From Escherichia coli (GTDB lineage Bacteria > Pseudomonadota > Gammaproteobacteria > Enterobacterales > Enterobacteriaceae), in the NCBI RefSeq assembly GCF_024700885.2, contig NZ_CP117016.1: 64,000 nt of DNA; one strand, written 5' to 3'. Position numbers and translations under genes: made by a program. This document shows, in pieces, positions 1 through 48,571 of this stretch. Every line of letters starts with the position of its first letter. Position 1 is the first letter of the stretch. The notes under the pieces were generated by a model. That model did no database searches. It worked only from the letters and a program-made list of their open reading frames with translations, and was not told where the DNA came from.

Positions 1-167
1 CTGAAAAGCTGTTTGGAGTTATCATTTATATCGTTTTGGGTTTTATTGCACTCGATTATCGTCGTATGCACAGTCAGCAGGCGCGCACTATTGCCTTCCC
101 GCTGGCGTTGGTGGTGCTGTACATCATCATTAAACTCGCCACCACAAAAGTACCGTTACTGGGGTAA
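1..167 (+). CDS. sirB2: C-terminal fragment of a small inner-membrane protein (SirB2/YchQ-like); 5' end lies outside the window
   Basis: Open frame runs from the window edge to TAA at 165-167; hydrophobic tail (...LALVVLYIIIKLATTKVPLLG); sits directly upstream of sirB1 and kdsA as in K-12. Confidence 0.5.
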   Translation, partial: EKLFGVIIYIVLGFIALDYRRMHSQQARTIAFPLALVVLYIIIKLATTKVPLLG

Positions 168-170
168 GTC

Positions 171-980
171 ATGAGATCGTTAGCTGATTTCGAATTTAAT
201 AAAGCGCCATTGTGCGAAGGCATGATCCTGGCTTGCGAAGCAATCCGCCGCGATTTTCCCTCGCAAGATGTTTACGACGAACTGGAGCGTCTCGTTAGTC
301 TGGCGAAGGAAGAAATCAGCCAGCTTCTGCCTTTAGAAGAGCAGCTGGAAAAACTGATCGCGCTGTTTTACGGCGACTGGGGATTTAAAGCCTCACGCGG
401 CGTTTATCGTCTTTCCGATGCATTATGGCTGGACCAGGTGTTAAAGAATCGACAGGGCAGTGCCGTATCATTAGGTGCCGTTTTATTATGGGTCGCGAAT
501 CGTCTCGATTTGCCGCTGCTGCCGGTGATTTTCCCTACGCAGCTGATATTGCGCATTGAATGTCCGGATGGCGAAATTTGGCTGATTAATCCTTTTAACG
601 GTGAATCGTTAAGCGAACATATGCTGGACGTATGGTTAAAGGGAAATATCAGCCCGTCGGCGGAACTGTTTTATGAAGACCTTGATGAAGCTGATAACAT
701 TGAGGTAATCCGCAAATTGCTGGATACACTCAAAGCTTCGTTGATGGAAGAAAATCAGATGGAGCTGGCGTTACGCACCAGCGAAGCTTTATTACAATTC
801 AACCCGGAAGATCCCTATGAAATTCGCGATCGCGGGTTGATTTATGCGCAACTGGATTGCGAACACGTTGCGTTGAACGATTTAAGTTATTTCGTTGAAC
901 AGTGTCCGGAAGACCCGATCAGCGAAATGATCCGTGCGCAAATAAATAACATCGCGCATAAACATATTGTGCTGCATTAA
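171..980 (+). CDS. sirB1: SirB1/YchA-like protein (269 aa)
   Basis: Track ORF of 269 aa; position between sirB2 and kdsA matches K-12 synteny. Confidence 0.7.
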   Translation: MRSLADFEFNKAPLCEGMILACEAIRRDFPSQDVYDELERLVSLAKEEISQLLPLEEQLEKLIALFYGDWGFKASRGVYRLSDALWLDQVLKNRQGSAVSLGAVLLWVANRLDLPLLPVIFPTQLILRIECPDGEIWLINPFNGESLSEHMLDVWLKGNISPSAELFYEDLDEADNIEVIRKLLDTLKASLMEENQMELALRTSEALLQFNPEDPYEIRDRGLIYAQLDCEHVALNDLSYFVEQCPEDPISEMIRAQINNIAHKHIVLH

Positions 981-2552: not shown

Positions 2553-2660
2553 TTACTTCCGGTTACGCCACCAGCTGACAATCGCTGCGGTAATAATTCC
2601 CGCCAGGATCGGTGCTGCCAGGTCGTGCCAGAAAATCATGGCAAACTGCGCGAGCGTCAT
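2553..2660 (-). CDS. ldr: Ldr-family type I toxin peptide (35 aa), copy 2
   Basis: Minus-strand ORF ATG(2660)..TAA(2553) translating to MTLAQFAMIFWHDLAAPILAGIITAAIVSWWRNRK. Confidence 0.8.
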   Translation of the reverse strand: MTLAQFAMIFWHDLAAPILAGIITAAIVSWWRNRK

Positions 2661-2717
2661 ATAGCCGCCTTGTTGTAATGACAACATTTTGCGGCTATTC
2701 TTGAATTGTTGATGGTT

Positions 2718-2778
2718 CAAGATTAGCCCCCGTTCTGTTGTCAGGTTTTACCTCTCAACGTGCGGGGGTTTTCTCTTT
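2718..2778 (+). ncRNA. rdl: Putative Rdl antisense RNA (antitoxin), copy 2; ends approximate
   Basis: Same hairpin+T-run as copy 1, in the second repeat unit. Confidence 0.4.
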
Positions 2779-3065
2779 CCAGCAACCAATGCCACCAGGG
2801 ATAAAGCCCCCGCAACATTGCGCCTCACCGGATAACGCCGGCTTGGTGTGGATACTACGTCTCAATTCATCTTCACTTCATCCCTGAAATGTTTGCAATA
2901 AAGAGTACATTCCGGCTTTTCAACAGCTGTTGCAGTGGTTTCGTGCAGGTTCTGGTACAGGCTCGCAATTCTGATTAACAACCTGTTCAGGTAGTATGAA
3001 GAAATACAATAAGCAGGAATTTATATTATCTCCCCCGATTTCTGTCATCGGAGGAGATATAACTG

Positions 3066-4166
3066 TCAGGCAAATATCGTCATCAAATAGGCGGCAAACA
3101 GTGCGAGATGCGCTGCGCCATTGAGCACGTTAGTACGTCCGGTGGAGAAGGAGATATGGCACAGCACTAAAGAGGCCACCATCACCACCATTTCTGGCGC
3201 ACCAAGTGCAAACTGCAATTCGTTACCCGTCATAAAGGCAATTAGCGTGACGACAGGTACGGTAAGCGAAATGGTTGCTAACACTGAACCAAAGAACAGA
3301 TTCATCGCGCGCTGGACCTGGTTGTTCAACACTGCTTTTAACGCACCTAAACCTTCCGGCGACAGAATCAACAGAGCCACCAGGAAGCCAGTAAAGGCGA
3401 CAGGGGCATTCATGCTGTCGAGCAATGTCTCCAGTGGGCTGGCGTTCATTTTGGTCACCGCAATAACGGCAATCAGATGGACAATCAACCAGATAGCATG
3501 CCACAGGCTGCTATGGGCAGACGGTTTACCGTGGTGCGGGTCGTCATCATCACTGTCATCTTCGTGCTCGTAGACAAATAAACTTTGATGCGTTTTGGTC
3601 TGGATCAGCAAAAATACGCCATACATTGCCGCAGAAATTAATGCTACCAGTAACGCCTGACCGGTTGAAAAATTCGCCGCAGGCAGAGCCATTGGAAATA
3701 CCAGTACGATTATCGCCAGGGGGAACAGCGCAATTAAATACTGCTTGATACCAAACAGATTCATATATTGGGTGGCAAACTTACGACCGCCCAACAATAA
3801 TGAAAAGCCAACCAGCCCACCGGTAACAATCATAATGATTGAATAGAGCGTATCACGCATTAGCGTTGGTGCGGCGTCGCCGGTTGCCATTAAAGCTGAA
3901 ATCAAACTGACTTCAAGAATAACCACTGAAAGGCTAAGAATAAGCGAACCGTAAGGTTCTCCCAGGCGATGGGCTAATACGTCCGCATGACGGACAACAC
4001 TAAAGGCGCTACTTAAAATACCAATAAGAGCAAGAAGATTGATGGCAATGACCACTGGTAGTGTCTGGCTGCTTCCCCACAGGAACAGCACTACCAGCGC
4101 CAGAACCGGGAAAATAAGCGAAGTCTCCTTGTGGCGGGTTTTTACCGCCTCTTGAGCATTTGACAT
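3066..4166 (-). CDS. chaA: Ca2+/H+ (Na+/H+) antiporter ChaA
   Basis: Polytopic membrane ORF; start moved to the internal ATG at 4166 (MSNAQEAVKTRHK..., 366 aa) because the 29-codon upstream extension of the track ORF is low-complexity with no RBS. Confidence 0.85.
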   Translation of the reverse strand: MSNAQEAVKTRHKETSLIFPVLALVVLFLWGSSQTLPVVIAINLLALIGILSSAFSVVRHADVLAHRLGEPYGSLILSLSVVILEVSLISALMATGDAAPTLMRDTLYSIIMIVTGGLVGFSLLLGGRKFATQYMNLFGIKQYLIALFPLAIIVLVFPMALPAANFSTGQALLVALISAAMYGVFLLIQTKTHQSLFVYEHEDDSDDDDPHHGKPSAHSSLWHAIWLIVHLIAVIAVTKMNASPLETLLDSMNAPVAFTGFLVALLILSPEGLGALKAVLNNQVQRAMNLFFGSVLATISLTVPVVTLIAFMTGNELQFALGAPEMVVMVASLVLCHISFSTGRTNVLNGAAHLALFAAYLMTIFA

Positions 4167-44021: not shown

Positions 44022-44660
44022 ATGAAAAAGTTAACAGTGGCGGCTTTGGCAGTAACAACTCTTCTCTCTGGCAGTGCCTTTGCGCATGAAGCAGGCGAAT
44101 TTTTTATGCGTGCAGGTTCTGCAACCGTACGTCCAACAGAAGGTGCTGGTGGTACGTTAGGAAGTCTGGGTGGATTCAGCGTGACCAATAACACTCAACT
44201 GGGCCTGACGTTTACTTATATGGCGACCGACAACATTGGTGTGGAATTACTGGCAGCGACGCCGTTCCGCCATAAAATCGGCACCAGGGCGACCGGCGAT
44301 ATTGCAACCGTTCATCATCTGCCGCCAACACTGATGGCGCAGTGGTATTTTGGTGATGCCAGCAGCAAATTCCGTCCTTATGTTGGGGCAGGCATCAACT
44401 ACACCACCTTCTTTGATAATGGATTTAACGATCATGGCAAAGAGGCGGGGCTTTCCGATCTCAGTCTGAAAGATTCCTGGGGAGCTGCCGGGCAGGTGGG
44501 GGTTGATTATCTGATTAACCGTGACTGGTTGGTTAACATGTCAGTGTGGTACATGGATATCGATACCACGGCTAAGTACAAATCTGGTGTTACTACCGTA
44601 AAAGACTCGGTACGACTGGATCCGTGGGTGTTTATGTTCTCCGCAGGATATCGTTTTTAA
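44022..44660 (+). CDS. ompW: Outer-membrane protein W
   Basis: 212-aa ORF with signal peptide (MKKLTVAALAVTTLLSGSAFA) and C-terminal aromatic residue (…YRF) typical of beta-barrel OMPs. Confidence 0.9.
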   Translation: MKKLTVAALAVTTLLSGSAFAHEAGEFFMRAGSATVRPTEGAGGTLGSLGGFSVTNNTQLGLTFTYMATDNIGVELLAATPFRHKIGTRATGDIATVHHLPPTLMAQWYFGDASSKFRPYVGAGINYTTFFDNGFNDHGKEAGLSDLSLKDSWGAAGQVGVDYLINRDWLVNMSVWYMDIDTTAKYKSGVTTVKDSVRLDPWVFMFSAGYRF

Positions 44661-44705
44661 TTTTCTCTGCAAAACCTCTGCAAAACCCCTCTGCAAAACT
44701 GGTCA

Positions 44706-45836
44706 TCAAATGACCAGTTTTTTCCATTCCTTACCGCGTGCATCGTTATAAATATCGGTCATTTTTTGATTCGAATGGCCTAGCAAAATTTTGGTATCAA
44801 CCCCCTGCTCTCTGAACAATCGCTCTGATAAAGATCTCTGCTCATGGAAAGAGGGTGGGGTGCCATTAGCACGCCAGTTGTAATCCACAGAATCCCGGGC
44901 TTTTTTAAATGCAACGGTTAATGTTGCTGGCTTAACCATCCCGCCGCGCTTAGCTGTCCCTTTCGCGTGATGGTGGTGCAATAGCCACGGACTAAGAACG
45001 CAATCGCGGCAGGATGACACTACATCATCCAGGGTGAGATTTAATTTATCGCAACGCAGAGCCAGAGGGATGGCAATCCGGGTTCCTGTTTTTTGCTGTT
45101 CGACATGAAGATAACCATCCCGGATATCCGAAAATTGCATTTTGCAAATATCTGAAAGGCGCTGGCCTGTCATCAGTGCCAGCAGCATACCGCGCTGTAA
45201 AAAGTAACCATCCTTTTCCGCTGCGTTATAAATCATCATCCACTCATCAAAAGTCAGTCGCTGTCTTGATATCCGCACCTGCGGTTTTTTTGCCGATTCT
45301 GCAGGGTTAAAGCCTGGCGGGACATCGCCCGTTTGCTGAGCTTCCCGGAAAACATCGATCAGTACTTTCCTGAAAATTTGTCCCATTCTGTTATGTCCTC
45401 TGGCCTTGTACTCTTCCAGTACTGATACCACATCTTTTACGGTTATGGCATCTAACGGTCTGGTGCCAAAACGTTCATCAAATACCCTGAGAGGGGCCGC
45501 TTTCTGTTTCAGCGTGTTGAGTTTGATCTCGCCGTTTTCATATCTTTCCTGTTGAATTTTTCTGTAATTATTCAGAAAAATGGTAACGGTTGATGAACCG
45601 CCGGTATCACTAATAATTTTCTCCTGCAGACTGAGCATTTGTTCCATTTGCTGCCGGGCAAGACGGCTGTTCGCTTCTGCTGCAATAGTTTCTGCCAGTT
45701 TCTGGTCAATACTGCCGAGACCGTGATTTTTGCCTGTTATGGGATGCCTGTAACGCCAGTAAACTTTGTTATTTCTTTTGTCAAAATACGGAGATAATCC
45801 CGGAACATCGGTTTTATATTTTCGCGGGCGCGCCAT
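44706..45836 (-). CDS. int: Phage tyrosine integrase
   Basis: 376-aa ORF ending at the ompW-proximal junction; C-terminal LLGHSNQKMTDIY box II with catalytic Tyr; overlaps the upstream xis gene by 23 nt. Confidence 0.9.
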   Translation of the reverse strand: MARPRKYKTDVPGLSPYFDKRNNKVYWRYRHPITGKNHGLGSIDQKLAETIAAEANSRLARQQMEQMLSLQEKIISDTGGSSTVTIFLNNYRKIQQERYENGEIKLNTLKQKAAPLRVFDERFGTRPLDAITVKDVVSVLEEYKARGHNRMGQIFRKVLIDVFREAQQTGDVPPGFNPAESAKKPQVRISRQRLTFDEWMMIYNAAEKDGYFLQRGMLLALMTGQRLSDICKMQFSDIRDGYLHVEQQKTGTRIAIPLALRCDKLNLTLDDVVSSCRDCVLSPWLLHHHHAKGTAKRGGMVKPATLTVAFKKARDSVDYNWRANGTPPSFHEQRSLSERLFREQGVDTKILLGHSNQKMTDIYNDARGKEWKKLVI

Positions 45837-46062
45837 CTTCCAGTATCCTCTTCAAAGCAGGGTGATCTGTGGCGATCACCTCCGGCTTGTTTACCATTCC
45901 GACAAAGCGAGCTTGCGGATCCACTCGCCAGCGTCTTCCAACTTTTTTGGGGAGAGGAAATATCATTCCGGCTTTAGCGTATTTACTTAACGTACTCGGA
46001 GTAGGGACCGGTTCACTGAATTCCTCTTTTGCCCACTCAGTGAGCAGAATAAGTCTTGCCAT
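45814..46062 (-). CDS. xis: Excisionase (lambda Xis-like)
   Basis: 82-aa ORF just upstream of and overlapping int; basic winged-helix-like core (GMIFPLPKKVGRRWRV). Confidence 0.65.
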   Translation of the reverse strand: MARLILLTEWAKEEFSEPVPTPSTLSKYAKAGMIFPLPKKVGRRWRVDPQARFVGMVNKPEVIATDHPALKRILEDGAPAKI

Positions 46063-46126: not shown

Positions 46127-48571
46127 TTAAAAATCAGCCTGATTCGGGATCAGTTTTTGCCAGATAACTGAAACGTATTTTGCCTGGTAACGGGCGTCAT
46201 CAAGTGCATTATGGCGCTCACCTTCGAATGGAATAGCCGTTCTGGCATCGAAGTCTATGGCTTTCCCCAGCTCAACGATTGTGCGTACATCTCGATCGTT
46301 GTAGTAACGCCACGGGCAGGGGATCCCCTGCCGTTCGTATGAACGGCGCAAAATCGTGTTGTCGAAGTTGGCTCCATTTCCCCAGACCTGAACAAAAAAT
46401 TCACCGGAGTTTTCGTCGATAAATTCCCGCAATTGTAACAGTGCATCATCTAACGGGATTTCATCGGTCATAATGGCAGATTGCGCTTCGCGTGATTGCT
46501 TAAGCCACCATTTAATGGTGTCCCGATCAATGACCCCGCCAGCAGTTTCCAGATCGATAGTCTTACTAAATTCCGGTCCCATATCTCCGGTTTGCGGATC
46601 GAAAAATATTGCACCTATTGAGATGATCGGGGCATCAGGATTTTTTCCCATGGTTTCAAGGTCGATCATTAGATGGTCACACGTCCTGCTGGTGGATGTG
46701 ATAATGTAATGATCGTTCACCGTAATTAAGGGATCTGCCGTCTCGCCAGTTTCACTATCGCTGGCGTGATCCTGAGCGCTGCCAGCATTCTCCTTGTGTG
46801 GATGTTCAGCGCCTTCCATTTCCTTCGGATCATTTTCCTGAACTTCAACCTGATTCTCTTCATCGAATGTTTCCTGGTATGTTGCGTCGCCCATCACCGC
46901 GCCACAATCAGGGCAGTTACCGCCGCCGGTCTGACCGCAGGCGGTGCAGACTTTTTCCACTTCCTGTTGCGCCACTGGTTCAGGCTGTTTCGTTTCTGGC
47001 TCGTTTTGTTGCGTATTTGGGCTGTTTTGTTCCGCTTTCTGGTCGTTCTGTTCCGATTCTTGCTGGTTCTGGTTTACAGAATCGCGGGTTTCAATCCCCT
47101 TTACCCATTTCGGATCATTCGGGTCGCTAATCCCTGCAACAAATTCTCCGCGAGAGGCAGCCAGTAATTTGTCTGCATCGACAGGATTTTTGGGCGGAAT
47201 GTTTTTCCGGGCTTCATAGAGTTCTGCCCGCAGTTTCTGATATTTCGCATCAACAGAATTTACCTGTGACTGAGCATCCAGCGGCTGCGTGTCCTGATGA
47301 TGTTCAGTTGCATCCGGTTCCACTGTTTCAGCCGTTGCCTGTTCATCTGCCATTGCGCAAGATGGTTGCAGTTTTTCTTCATCATCCTGTTTTTCTTCTT
47401 CTGTTACACGCTGCGGCATCGGGGCAGAGGAACGACCGCAGGCAATATCCACGATTTCTGGATCAGGGTTGGCATGATCAGTTTCAGTCAGTACTTTGTT
47501 AAGATATTCAGTGACGTGTGCGGGGATAACCTCGATCCCAATTGGTGCTTCTTTTACGGACGCAACCACGATGGCGCGGGAATAATCCAGCCCGCCAGGC
47601 ATGGTGATGAATTTGTCGCGGAAAACAGAAAAGGGCGGTTTATTTTCAGCGATAATTTCCTCGACACGTTTAGCGTGTGCCGGATGAAGGTTATAAATGT
47701 CCACGTCCATTGAACGAGCCAGTACGCCAGTGGCTACGTCGCGCGCCAGTGACGTCAGATCGTGAACGAAACCTTCGCCGCGATCGGTGAGGTTCCCGCC
47801 GCCAGCATTAGCGCCGGAAGCCGTGCGCGTGATGCGTGAAACACGATTTCCTTTCATCCACTCTTTTGTCAGCAGACCGCGATCGGTGTAGTCTGCGTCC
47901 AGGTATGCTTCGAAAAAAGCAGTCATCAGCCCCAGGCTTGAATTGCCTGGATTAGGGAAAACTCTGTCAGTATCACGCACCAGTTTGTGGAGATCGCGAA
48001 TTTCCAGCGGGTCGAGCAGGCTGGTTTTGTGGGAAACAGCCAGGGCAGTAACAGCTGGTAGTTCTTCAGCTCGTGCAATGTGTAATGCCTGTAGTTCGTT
48101 GCGTGAAACGTGCGTTACCGGTTTTTCGCTGCCGTGTTGAGCAAGCCAGCGAATGGGCAGCTCCTGACCGGAAATCGGGAGTAGCATATTCTCCTCAATC
48201 TCCGTCATGTCTTCGCCATTAACATTGGTATTGTCAGTGCTGGCTGGCTTGTCCTGCGCAGAGGATGAGGGCGCGATAAATACCATTGTGATGCCATCTT
48301 CCCCGCCTTTTTCGTAACGGTTGCAGAATTCCGTATCAAATACGCCTTCTGGTGGAAGGTCATCAACAACGGGCAAATTGACGCGAACAGGTTTTTTAAA
48401 GTCATCTTCATCGTAGCCAGCATCGTCAATCGCAACAGCACCACGATAGATGGCAATGGATAATTTTTTCGCTTCAGCCCAGTAGAAACCGCCTTTAATA
48501 CCGAGACGTTTTCTTACTTTGTCATTTTTTGCTTCGTAATACAGTGGGTAAACTTGTTTATCGGTGCTCAT
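46127..48571 (-). CDS. Large early-region protein (814 aa) with C-terminal DEDDh (DnaQ-like) 3'-5' exonuclease domain
   Basis: C-terminal ~180 aa carry Exo I (MIDLETMG), Exo II ([12 protein letters not shown]) and Exo III (HNALDDARY) motifs; the central segment is highly acidic/low-complexity with a CxxC...CxxC zinc ribbon ([16 protein letters not shown]). Confidence 0.6.

Follow-up and report, generated by a model that had tools for sequence, protein, structure and literature searches.

Three exact tandem copies of CTCTGCAAAAC stand between ompW and the convergent integrase gene of a prophage in the stretch of Escherichia coli DNA analysed here (64,000 nucleotides, referred to as the window). 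These repeats are probably integrase-binding sites of the P′ arm, and the hairpin that overlaps the last of them is, with the same confidence, the terminator that the phage supplies for ompW. Judged from the alignment of attachment sites, the junction of chromosome and phage is not in this spacer, where the first-pass annotation had put it, but inside ompW, ~100 bases upstream of the 45-bp spacer; from the right edge of the core onwards the DNA belongs to the phage, and with it the final 91 bases of ompW (44570–44660). The prophage, its insertion into ompW, a 121-bp att sequence and excision are already known, and the layout follows the same design as in phage 21 and e14. Two points are refined by the present comparison: the crossover region spans at most 28 bp instead of 121 bp, and the clade appears to carry an arm motif of its own, YCTGCAAAAC. 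No new mechanism is revealed by the ompW junction.

The spacer is delimited by two convergent genes. The open reading frame of the chimeric ompW (44022–44660, plus strand) ends with a TAA stop at 44658–44660, and that of the integrase (376 amino acids; 44706–45836, minus strand) with a TGA stop, the complement of 44706–44708; the distance between the two stops is exactly 45 bp, as previously noted. The start of int is overlapped by the gene of an excisionase, Xis (45814–46062, minus strand; Pfam PF07825 Exc, E = 1.3e-7), which is named xisE in LC567822.1. Within the spacer, the copies of CTCTGCAAAAC start at 44665, 44676 and 44689 on the plus strand, i.e. at a spacing of 11 and 13 bp (TRF score of the three repeats, 52–54), and no further exact copy is found anywhere in the 64-kb window. 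We refer to them as the putative arm-type sites P′1 (44665–44675), P′2 (44676–44686) and P′3 (44689–44699); all three are kept in variants and in relatives of the integrase, and the last five bases of the third form the foot of the hairpin. The hairpin and its T-run (44695–44723), a putative bidirectional intrinsic terminator, hold the int stop codon. The arms of the hairpin, 44695–44706 and 44710–44721, are 12 bp long and 100% complementary and enclose the loop CAA; the T-run, 44718–44723, is 3′ of the hairpin, and the right arm codes for the C-terminal end of the integrase (..K K L V I stop). The three tandem repeats, the palindrome and the T-run overlapping the integrase end are thus all present as the first-pass annotation had described them, and they are not a product of chance.

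Four sequences were aligned across the junction: the attL of the window, the attL and the attR of PPompW_132418, and the attB of a prophage-free, K-12-like chromosome. Common to all four is a 28-bp block, CAGTGTGGTACATGGATATCGATACCAC (44542–44569), which shows dyad symmetry (GTGGTA...TACCAC), is identical in attL, attR and attB, occurs as a single copy in the window and lies 89–116 bp upstream of the ompW stop. To the left of this core, attL consists of chromosomal ompW and attR of phage DNA; to its right, attL continues with a diverged ompW 3′ end, and attR with the native 3′ end, the native terminator and yciE. Every polymorphism to the right of the core is of the phage type in attL and of the native type in attR; strand exchange therefore takes place inside 44542–44569. 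A variant core, in which GACACAAC is found in the right half (locus L053), suggests that the exchange occurs within the left ~22 bp of the block. The assignment of the region to the attL side of the insertion, made from the window alone, is upheld, as it represents the integrase-proximal, BOP′-type end of the prophage at ompW.

The phage-borne surrogate of the ompW 3′ end (44570–44662, plus strand) has a diverged middle (44570–44618), which is followed by a near-identical block that extends to TAATT. Prophage-free genomes match the region up to position 44662 only: after TAATT, the K-12-like attB has a wholly different sequence, and both repeats and hairpin are missing from it. The possibility that the repeats are ordinary chromosomal sequence, which had been raised as a test of the att-related reading, is excluded by this comparison. 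The 121-bp “duplication due to insertion” annotated in LC567822.1 (repeat_region 91..211) corresponds to 44542–44662 of the window; it is the extent of ompW-like sequence carried by the phage. As the crossover region, the 121-bp duplication was rejected, its polymorphisms segregating completely between attL and attR.

The same evidence bears on a possible identity of the repeats with all or part of the att core, an idea suggested by their location between the host gene and the integrase gene, where a core is often searched for. It is refuted: neither attB nor the chromosomal flank of attR contains the repeats, the match to prophage-free genomes ending at 44662, the polymorphisms place the exchange at 44542–44569, and the same repeats recur in relatives sited in unrelated genes. 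The att core was accordingly dropped as an identity for either the repeats or the hairpin. Of the three options that the first-pass annotation had left open for the repeats, the absence from attB removes this one, and the arm-type sites are favoured.

The other end of the prophage is outside the window, as had been stated. In E. coli MLI114 (NZ_CP117013.1), which matches the window at 100%, attR is found at a window-equivalent position of ~97,397, and the prophage measures ~52.9 kb from attL to attR. A second copy of the core, the search for which had been suggested, is present as CAGTGTGGTACATGGATATCGATACCAC in the attR of PPompW_132418; the attR of MLI114 holds the displaced native ompW 3′ end, which is annotated as a pseudogene (“OmpW family, missing N-terminus”). 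The junction is widespread: of 5426 complete E. coli genomes, 1646 (~30%) contain a 70-bp stretch comprising repeats and hairpin, adjoining the integrase gene in 30/30 among the matches listed, and its carriers include O157:H7, O145:H28, O111 and EPEC E2348/69. With ~30% of the complete genomes having this junction, the calling of prophage boundaries, the typing of ompW alleles and the design of att-PCRs should allow for it: the boundary of an ompW prophage belongs ~100 bp into ompW and outside the spacer that separates ompW from int.

Lysogens carry a chimeric OmpW. Its codons are chromosomal up to the core, which covers codons ~175–183, and the last ~30 codons, corresponding to loop L4 and strand β8, are phage-encoded; the reading frame stays open across the 3′ end that the phage supplies. 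The OmpW of the window is identical to that of K-12 (PDB 2MHL/2F1T) except for AKYKSGVTTVKDS, which replaces ANYKLGGAQQHDS, and at least four different versions of the phage-encoded 3′ end, and hence of L4, have been seen. The core coincides with the exact end of strand β7, so that each integration swaps the surface loop L4 for a phage-encoded version.

If the repeats are arm-type sites, copies would be expected on both sides of the core, and this is the arrangement found. In the 44-kb PPompW_132418, CTGCAAAAC is present exactly four times, three times in the P′ arm and once in the P arm (at +120, +131, +144 and −133 relative to the core); none of 100 shuffled versions of this sequence contains at least four copies, the mean being 0.49. 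In the P arm of the attR that belongs to the window prophage, the matching place is occupied by TTCTGCAAAAC. P arms were also retrieved from IMG/VR by means of the core sequence, an unbiased procedure, and fall into four lineages that are 67–77% identical: the motif is invariant at exactly −133 in all four and points in the direction of the P′ copies. WATCARNNNNTTA, which is IHF-like by consensus match only, is fixed at −106 in all lineages, just its N positions being variable; in phage 21 and e14, an IHF-like site (again by consensus match only) is located at −99. No IHF (H′-like) consensus was found between core and repeats with ≤1 mismatch allowed, and a search of the P arm for the motif in inverted, P2-like orientation was negative. 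Taken by itself, the motif is repeated in both arms flanking the core and is unrelated to the core sequence.

The variants of attL differ in several parts of the region. The distance from core to repeats is 120 bp in the window and 135 bp in an O25:H16 variant, indicating a geometry with some latitude. The surrogate coding sequence is strongly variable and may include a 15-bp insertion; the repeats are conserved, with the spacer that separates the second copy from the third varying (CCCC, CTCT, CTCC). Replication slippage can make short tandem repeats of this kind, and this variable spacer might be seen as its trace; a functionless duplication of this origin is nevertheless extremely improbable, given that the motif stays constant where the spacers and the adjoining surrogate coding sequence vary, that it is kept in relatives of the integrase down to 53% identity, and that it has a partner copy at a fixed position in the P arm.

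The 45-bp spacer would be the outer portion of the P′ arm of attL in a lambdoid prophage of the PPompW type that resembles phage 21 and e14. Its attP is composed, in this order, of the P arm, the 28-bp core, a replacement copy of the last ~30 codons of ompW, the three 11-mers, the hairpin and the 3′ end of int. Upon integration, strands are exchanged in the 28-bp core; the host retains an intact, chimeric ompW with a phage-derived end, and the native ompW 3′ end is moved ~52.9 kb away to attR. The three copies of CTCTGCAAAAC (P′1–P′3) are presumably contacted by the arm-binding domain at the N-terminus of the adjoining integrase, and the fourth copy is located in the P arm, 133 bp to the left of the core and beside the IHF-like site. 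With such an arrangement, an intasome like that of lambda could form, in which the integrase spans arm and core sites.

The integrase itself is a lambda-type heterobivalent tyrosine recombinase: it matches PF09003 Arm-DNA-bind_1 (E = 7.1e-22, residues 2–71), PF22022 and PF00589 (E = 1.3e-16). Its identity is 100% with the integrase of PPompW, 50.5% with phage 21 Int, 50% with e14 IntE (full length) and 36% with lambda Int. Relatives were collected from viral contigs of IMG/VR, in which flanking sequence is available for 13/80 loci; most of these contigs end exactly at the int stop, where the prophage calls have been clipped, and are uninformative for the downstream arm. Relatives with 53–68% identity are sited in a ushA/cpdB-like gene, in another gene and in the ompW of another species, and all of them keep the triple YCTGCAAAAC. 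In one locus (L088), the triplet is separated from int by ~1 kb with a cargo gene in between and still directly follows the terminator of the host gene. That the triplet adjoins the att junction despite the cargo links the motif to att and not to the int 3′ end. Across these sequences, the putative arm motif goes with the lineage of the integrase and not with target gene or core.

Between integrase classes, the 3′ half of the motif, CAAAAC, is common, and the 5′ halves differ (CTCTG, TTCCC, GTTAT). In phage 21, e14 and the locus L100, a different 5′ half is accompanied by different residues in the N-domain, where PGLS/HGLG in the ompW phage compares with PNLY/HSLG in phage 21 and PNLY/HALG in e14, albeit in a small set. 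The 5′ half of NNNNN-CAAAAC may be read by a few residues of the N-domain. Two extensions of the analysis go further than routine annotation and are rather improbable: that the L4 swap is a form of lysogenic conversion, OmpW being known as a receptor for a colicin or phage, or that a modular arm-site code of the form NNNNN-CAAAAC operates in the clade. If such a code were true, arm specificity would be predictable and could be swapped independently of core specificity. A third and a fourth class of arm motif are added to the phage 21/e14 group of integrases, and these classes could aid the choice of orthogonal lambda-type integrase/att pairs.

A motif that is recognized as conserved and att-linked by comparison could be the target of a protein other than the integrase, namely of the excisionase, of Fis or a further host protein, or of a phage-encoded regulator that controls the expression of int or ompW. 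The binding sites of lambda Xis are tandem direct repeats spaced by about one helical turn and occur in the P arm only; the tandem direct repeats considered here, about one helical turn apart, resemble them. However, the motif is present in both arms, with three copies next to int and one in the far P arm, which is the pattern of the Int sites P′1–3 and P1 of lambda and not that of Xis. Furthermore, the 5′ half of the motif and the N-domain residues of the integrase change together between classes, and the record of phage 21 labels the equivalent triplet as subsites of attP. Binding by a protein other than the integrase is for these reasons unlikely, and the integrase is retained as the presumable ligand of the repeats.

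The hairpin has the properties of an intrinsic terminator. An 81-nt RNA containing it has a predicted folding energy of −17 kcal/mol, compared with −5.35 ± 1.96 for shuffled sequences (z = −5.9), and none of 200 shuffles was as good. Its terminator features comprise the stem CUGGUCAU/AUGACCAG, an extension by A-U pairs and then 6 U, and in ETEC1732 the stem differs by a C>T / G>A pair of changes that compensate each other. A scan for sigma-70 and terminator consensus sequences did not list the hairpin, an omission that may be due to the extension of the stem into the T-run. A hairpin at the int stop is seen in phages that integrate into ompW, namely those of the window type and a 68%-identical lineage (L069); these phages have no separate terminator after the surrogate, the hairpin and T-run following the arm sites. 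In phage 21, e14 and relatives at other genes, a strong stem-loop with T-run directly follows the surrogate stop, and there is no hairpin over the int stop. Hairpin and T-run would accordingly be the terminator with which the phage provides the remodelled ompW, and by virtue of the A-tract on its other side the hairpin may also end the convergent int transcript. The earlier suggestion of a remodelled ompW terminator is therefore apt for the hairpin but does not account for the repeats.

Repeats and hairpin might alternatively form one element that acts at the RNA level, either in the 3′-UTR of int, for instance as a retroregulation signal in the manner of lambda sib, or as plain parts of a terminator that have no role in recombination. 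The overlap of the hairpin with the int stop and with the last repeat would be compatible with this, as would the second, weak hairpin that the minus-strand RNA can fold from the repeats. Such an element is nonetheless very unlikely: in L088 the triplet is ~1 kb from int and still at the att junction, a fourth copy is located in the P arm, far from int, and relatives keep the repeats without the hairpin. Moreover, the element is placed between int and the core and is, unlike sib, found in the phage and the prophage state alike. With the hairpin located between core and int and hence common to both states, sib-like retroregulation by it was rejected. The preferred assignment thus remains a division of labour, in which the repeats would be arm-type sites and the hairpin a terminator.

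The closest known relatives of the prophage are the PPompW prophages of STEC and EPEC (GenBank LC567818-LC567841), for which excision and circularisation after mitomycin C have been described and attP has been amplified by PCR and sequenced (Nakamura et al. 2021, PLoS Pathog 17:e1009073; PMC8112680). In that study, the whole 121 bp is given as the att sequence, and arm-type sites are not mentioned (PMC8112680). They represent the same type of element, inserted into ompW, and their attL region is 99.7% identical to that of the window (LC567818-LC567841). The window prophage differs from them in its P arm, which is 70% identical, and in its cargo.

Phage 21 resembles the window phage in that its core is located in a protein gene and a surrogate 3′ end and a terminator are followed by three tandem arm repeats with the ending CAAAAC, immediately ahead of the int stop. 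Its record annotates the icd surrogate, the terminator and the statement “attP consists of 3 subsites P1P2P3”, with the consensus YYTTCCCCAAAA; a single P-arm copy is found ~130 bp to the left of the core and is followed by the IHF-like AATCAAACGGTTG. The differences concern the target and core, which are those of icd, and the 5′ half of the arm motif, which is TTCCC in phage 21 and CTCTG in the window phage. Moreover, the terminator of phage 21 precedes the arm sites, whereas the hairpin of the window follows them, and its surrogate is longer, the distance from core to P′ being ~230 bp as compared with 120 bp. The attP of phage 21 is reportedly required to include the outermost dodecamers, and the phage is said to need its own arm and core sequences.

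A second parallel is e14 of E. coli K-12, which likewise has an icd surrogate with terminator, a triple GTTATCAAAA and one P-arm copy, the latter followed by the IHF-like AATCAATGAGTTA. It differs in the arm motif, in the icd target and in the presence of ymfD, ymfE and lit between the arm sites and intE, a situation comparable to that in L088. The P arms of the ompW phage, phage 21 and e14 can be aligned colinearly.

The similarity to lambda is more distant. Both phages have an Int with a PF09003 N-domain, and xis adjoins int in both. In the attP of lambda, the 3′ end of int is adjoined by three arm sites in direct tandem order, a co-oriented site is located in the far P arm, and one or more IHF sites are present; the consensus of the lambda arm sites, C/AAGTCACTAT, differs from the motif of the window phage. 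Lambda possesses P2 and H′, whereas no P2-like inverted copy or H′-like site was detected in the ompW phage. The distance of 120 bp from core to repeats is about twice that of lambda, the P′ arm being lengthened by the surrogate of the host gene, and lambda integrates between genes, the ompW phage within one. With ompW instead of icd as its target, the attachment system described here is a sibling of those of phage 21 and e14.

The phage-borne segment of ompW at window positions 44570-44618 encodes extracellular loop L4, which lies between strands beta-7 and beta-8 of OmpW; it was compared with L003, L005, L053 and L069, four loci of viral contigs in IMG/VR. The window and these loci hold at least four distinct versions of the phage-encoded L4, one with a 5-residue insertion, while OmpW outside L4 is identical to K-12. 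Integration therefore exchanges a surface loop of OmpW, a known receptor of colicin and phage.

Directly downstream, all synonymous sites of GATCCGTGGGTGTTTATGTTCTC (window 44619-44641) are unchanged across native E. coli ompW, all phage-carried surrogates of its 3' end and L069, which represents a lineage with 68%-identical Int. In the 49 nt immediately upstream of this tract, by comparison, differences have reached saturation, both synonymous and non-synonymous ones. Such invariance beside a saturated stretch may reflect either gene conversion or a constraint at the DNA level, perhaps imposed by a binding site.

L020 (5357-8105 of IMGVR_UViG_643886067_000001) has the same integrase, int-side P' arm and ompW surrogate as the window type. 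Left of the core, the att identity block, ompW is replaced by a fimbrial usher gene cut mid-domain (PF13954 and PF00577), beyond which come genes for a chaperone and for fimbrial subunits; this arrangement could reflect integration at a secondary site or a prophage-mediated rearrangement. Complete attP-like sites, comprising P arm, core, surrogate, triple repeat and int, are located mid-contig in L009, L013, L015, L019 and L053, and the integrase copies L053 and L059 share a single 97.9-kb contig. These arrangements fit tandem prophages or the ‘attB-in-PP_3’ sequences described in prophages integrated elsewhere (Nakamura et al. 2021, PMC8112680).

Adjoining xis, an 814-aa ORF (46127-48571, minus strand), annotated as an exonuclease in relatives, contains a long, acidic, low-complexity middle region; its counterpart in the published ompW prophage PPompW_132418 is frameshifted. 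In the integrase N-domain, residues 12-15 and 38-41 (window ~45716-45803, minus strand) vary in parallel with the putative arm-type motif: integrases with PGLS and HGLG accompany CTGCAAAAC, those with PNLY and HSLG (phage 21, L100) CCCCAAAA, and that of e14, with PNLY and HALG, TTATCAAAA. Because independent lineages are few, this apparent co-variation is only suggestive. In some relatives, cargo ORFs separate int from the arm sites (L088, ~2630-3650; L065, 2626-3601), and the interval appears to be a recurrent point of cargo insertion; similarly, ymfD, ymfE and lit occupy the corresponding interval of e14.
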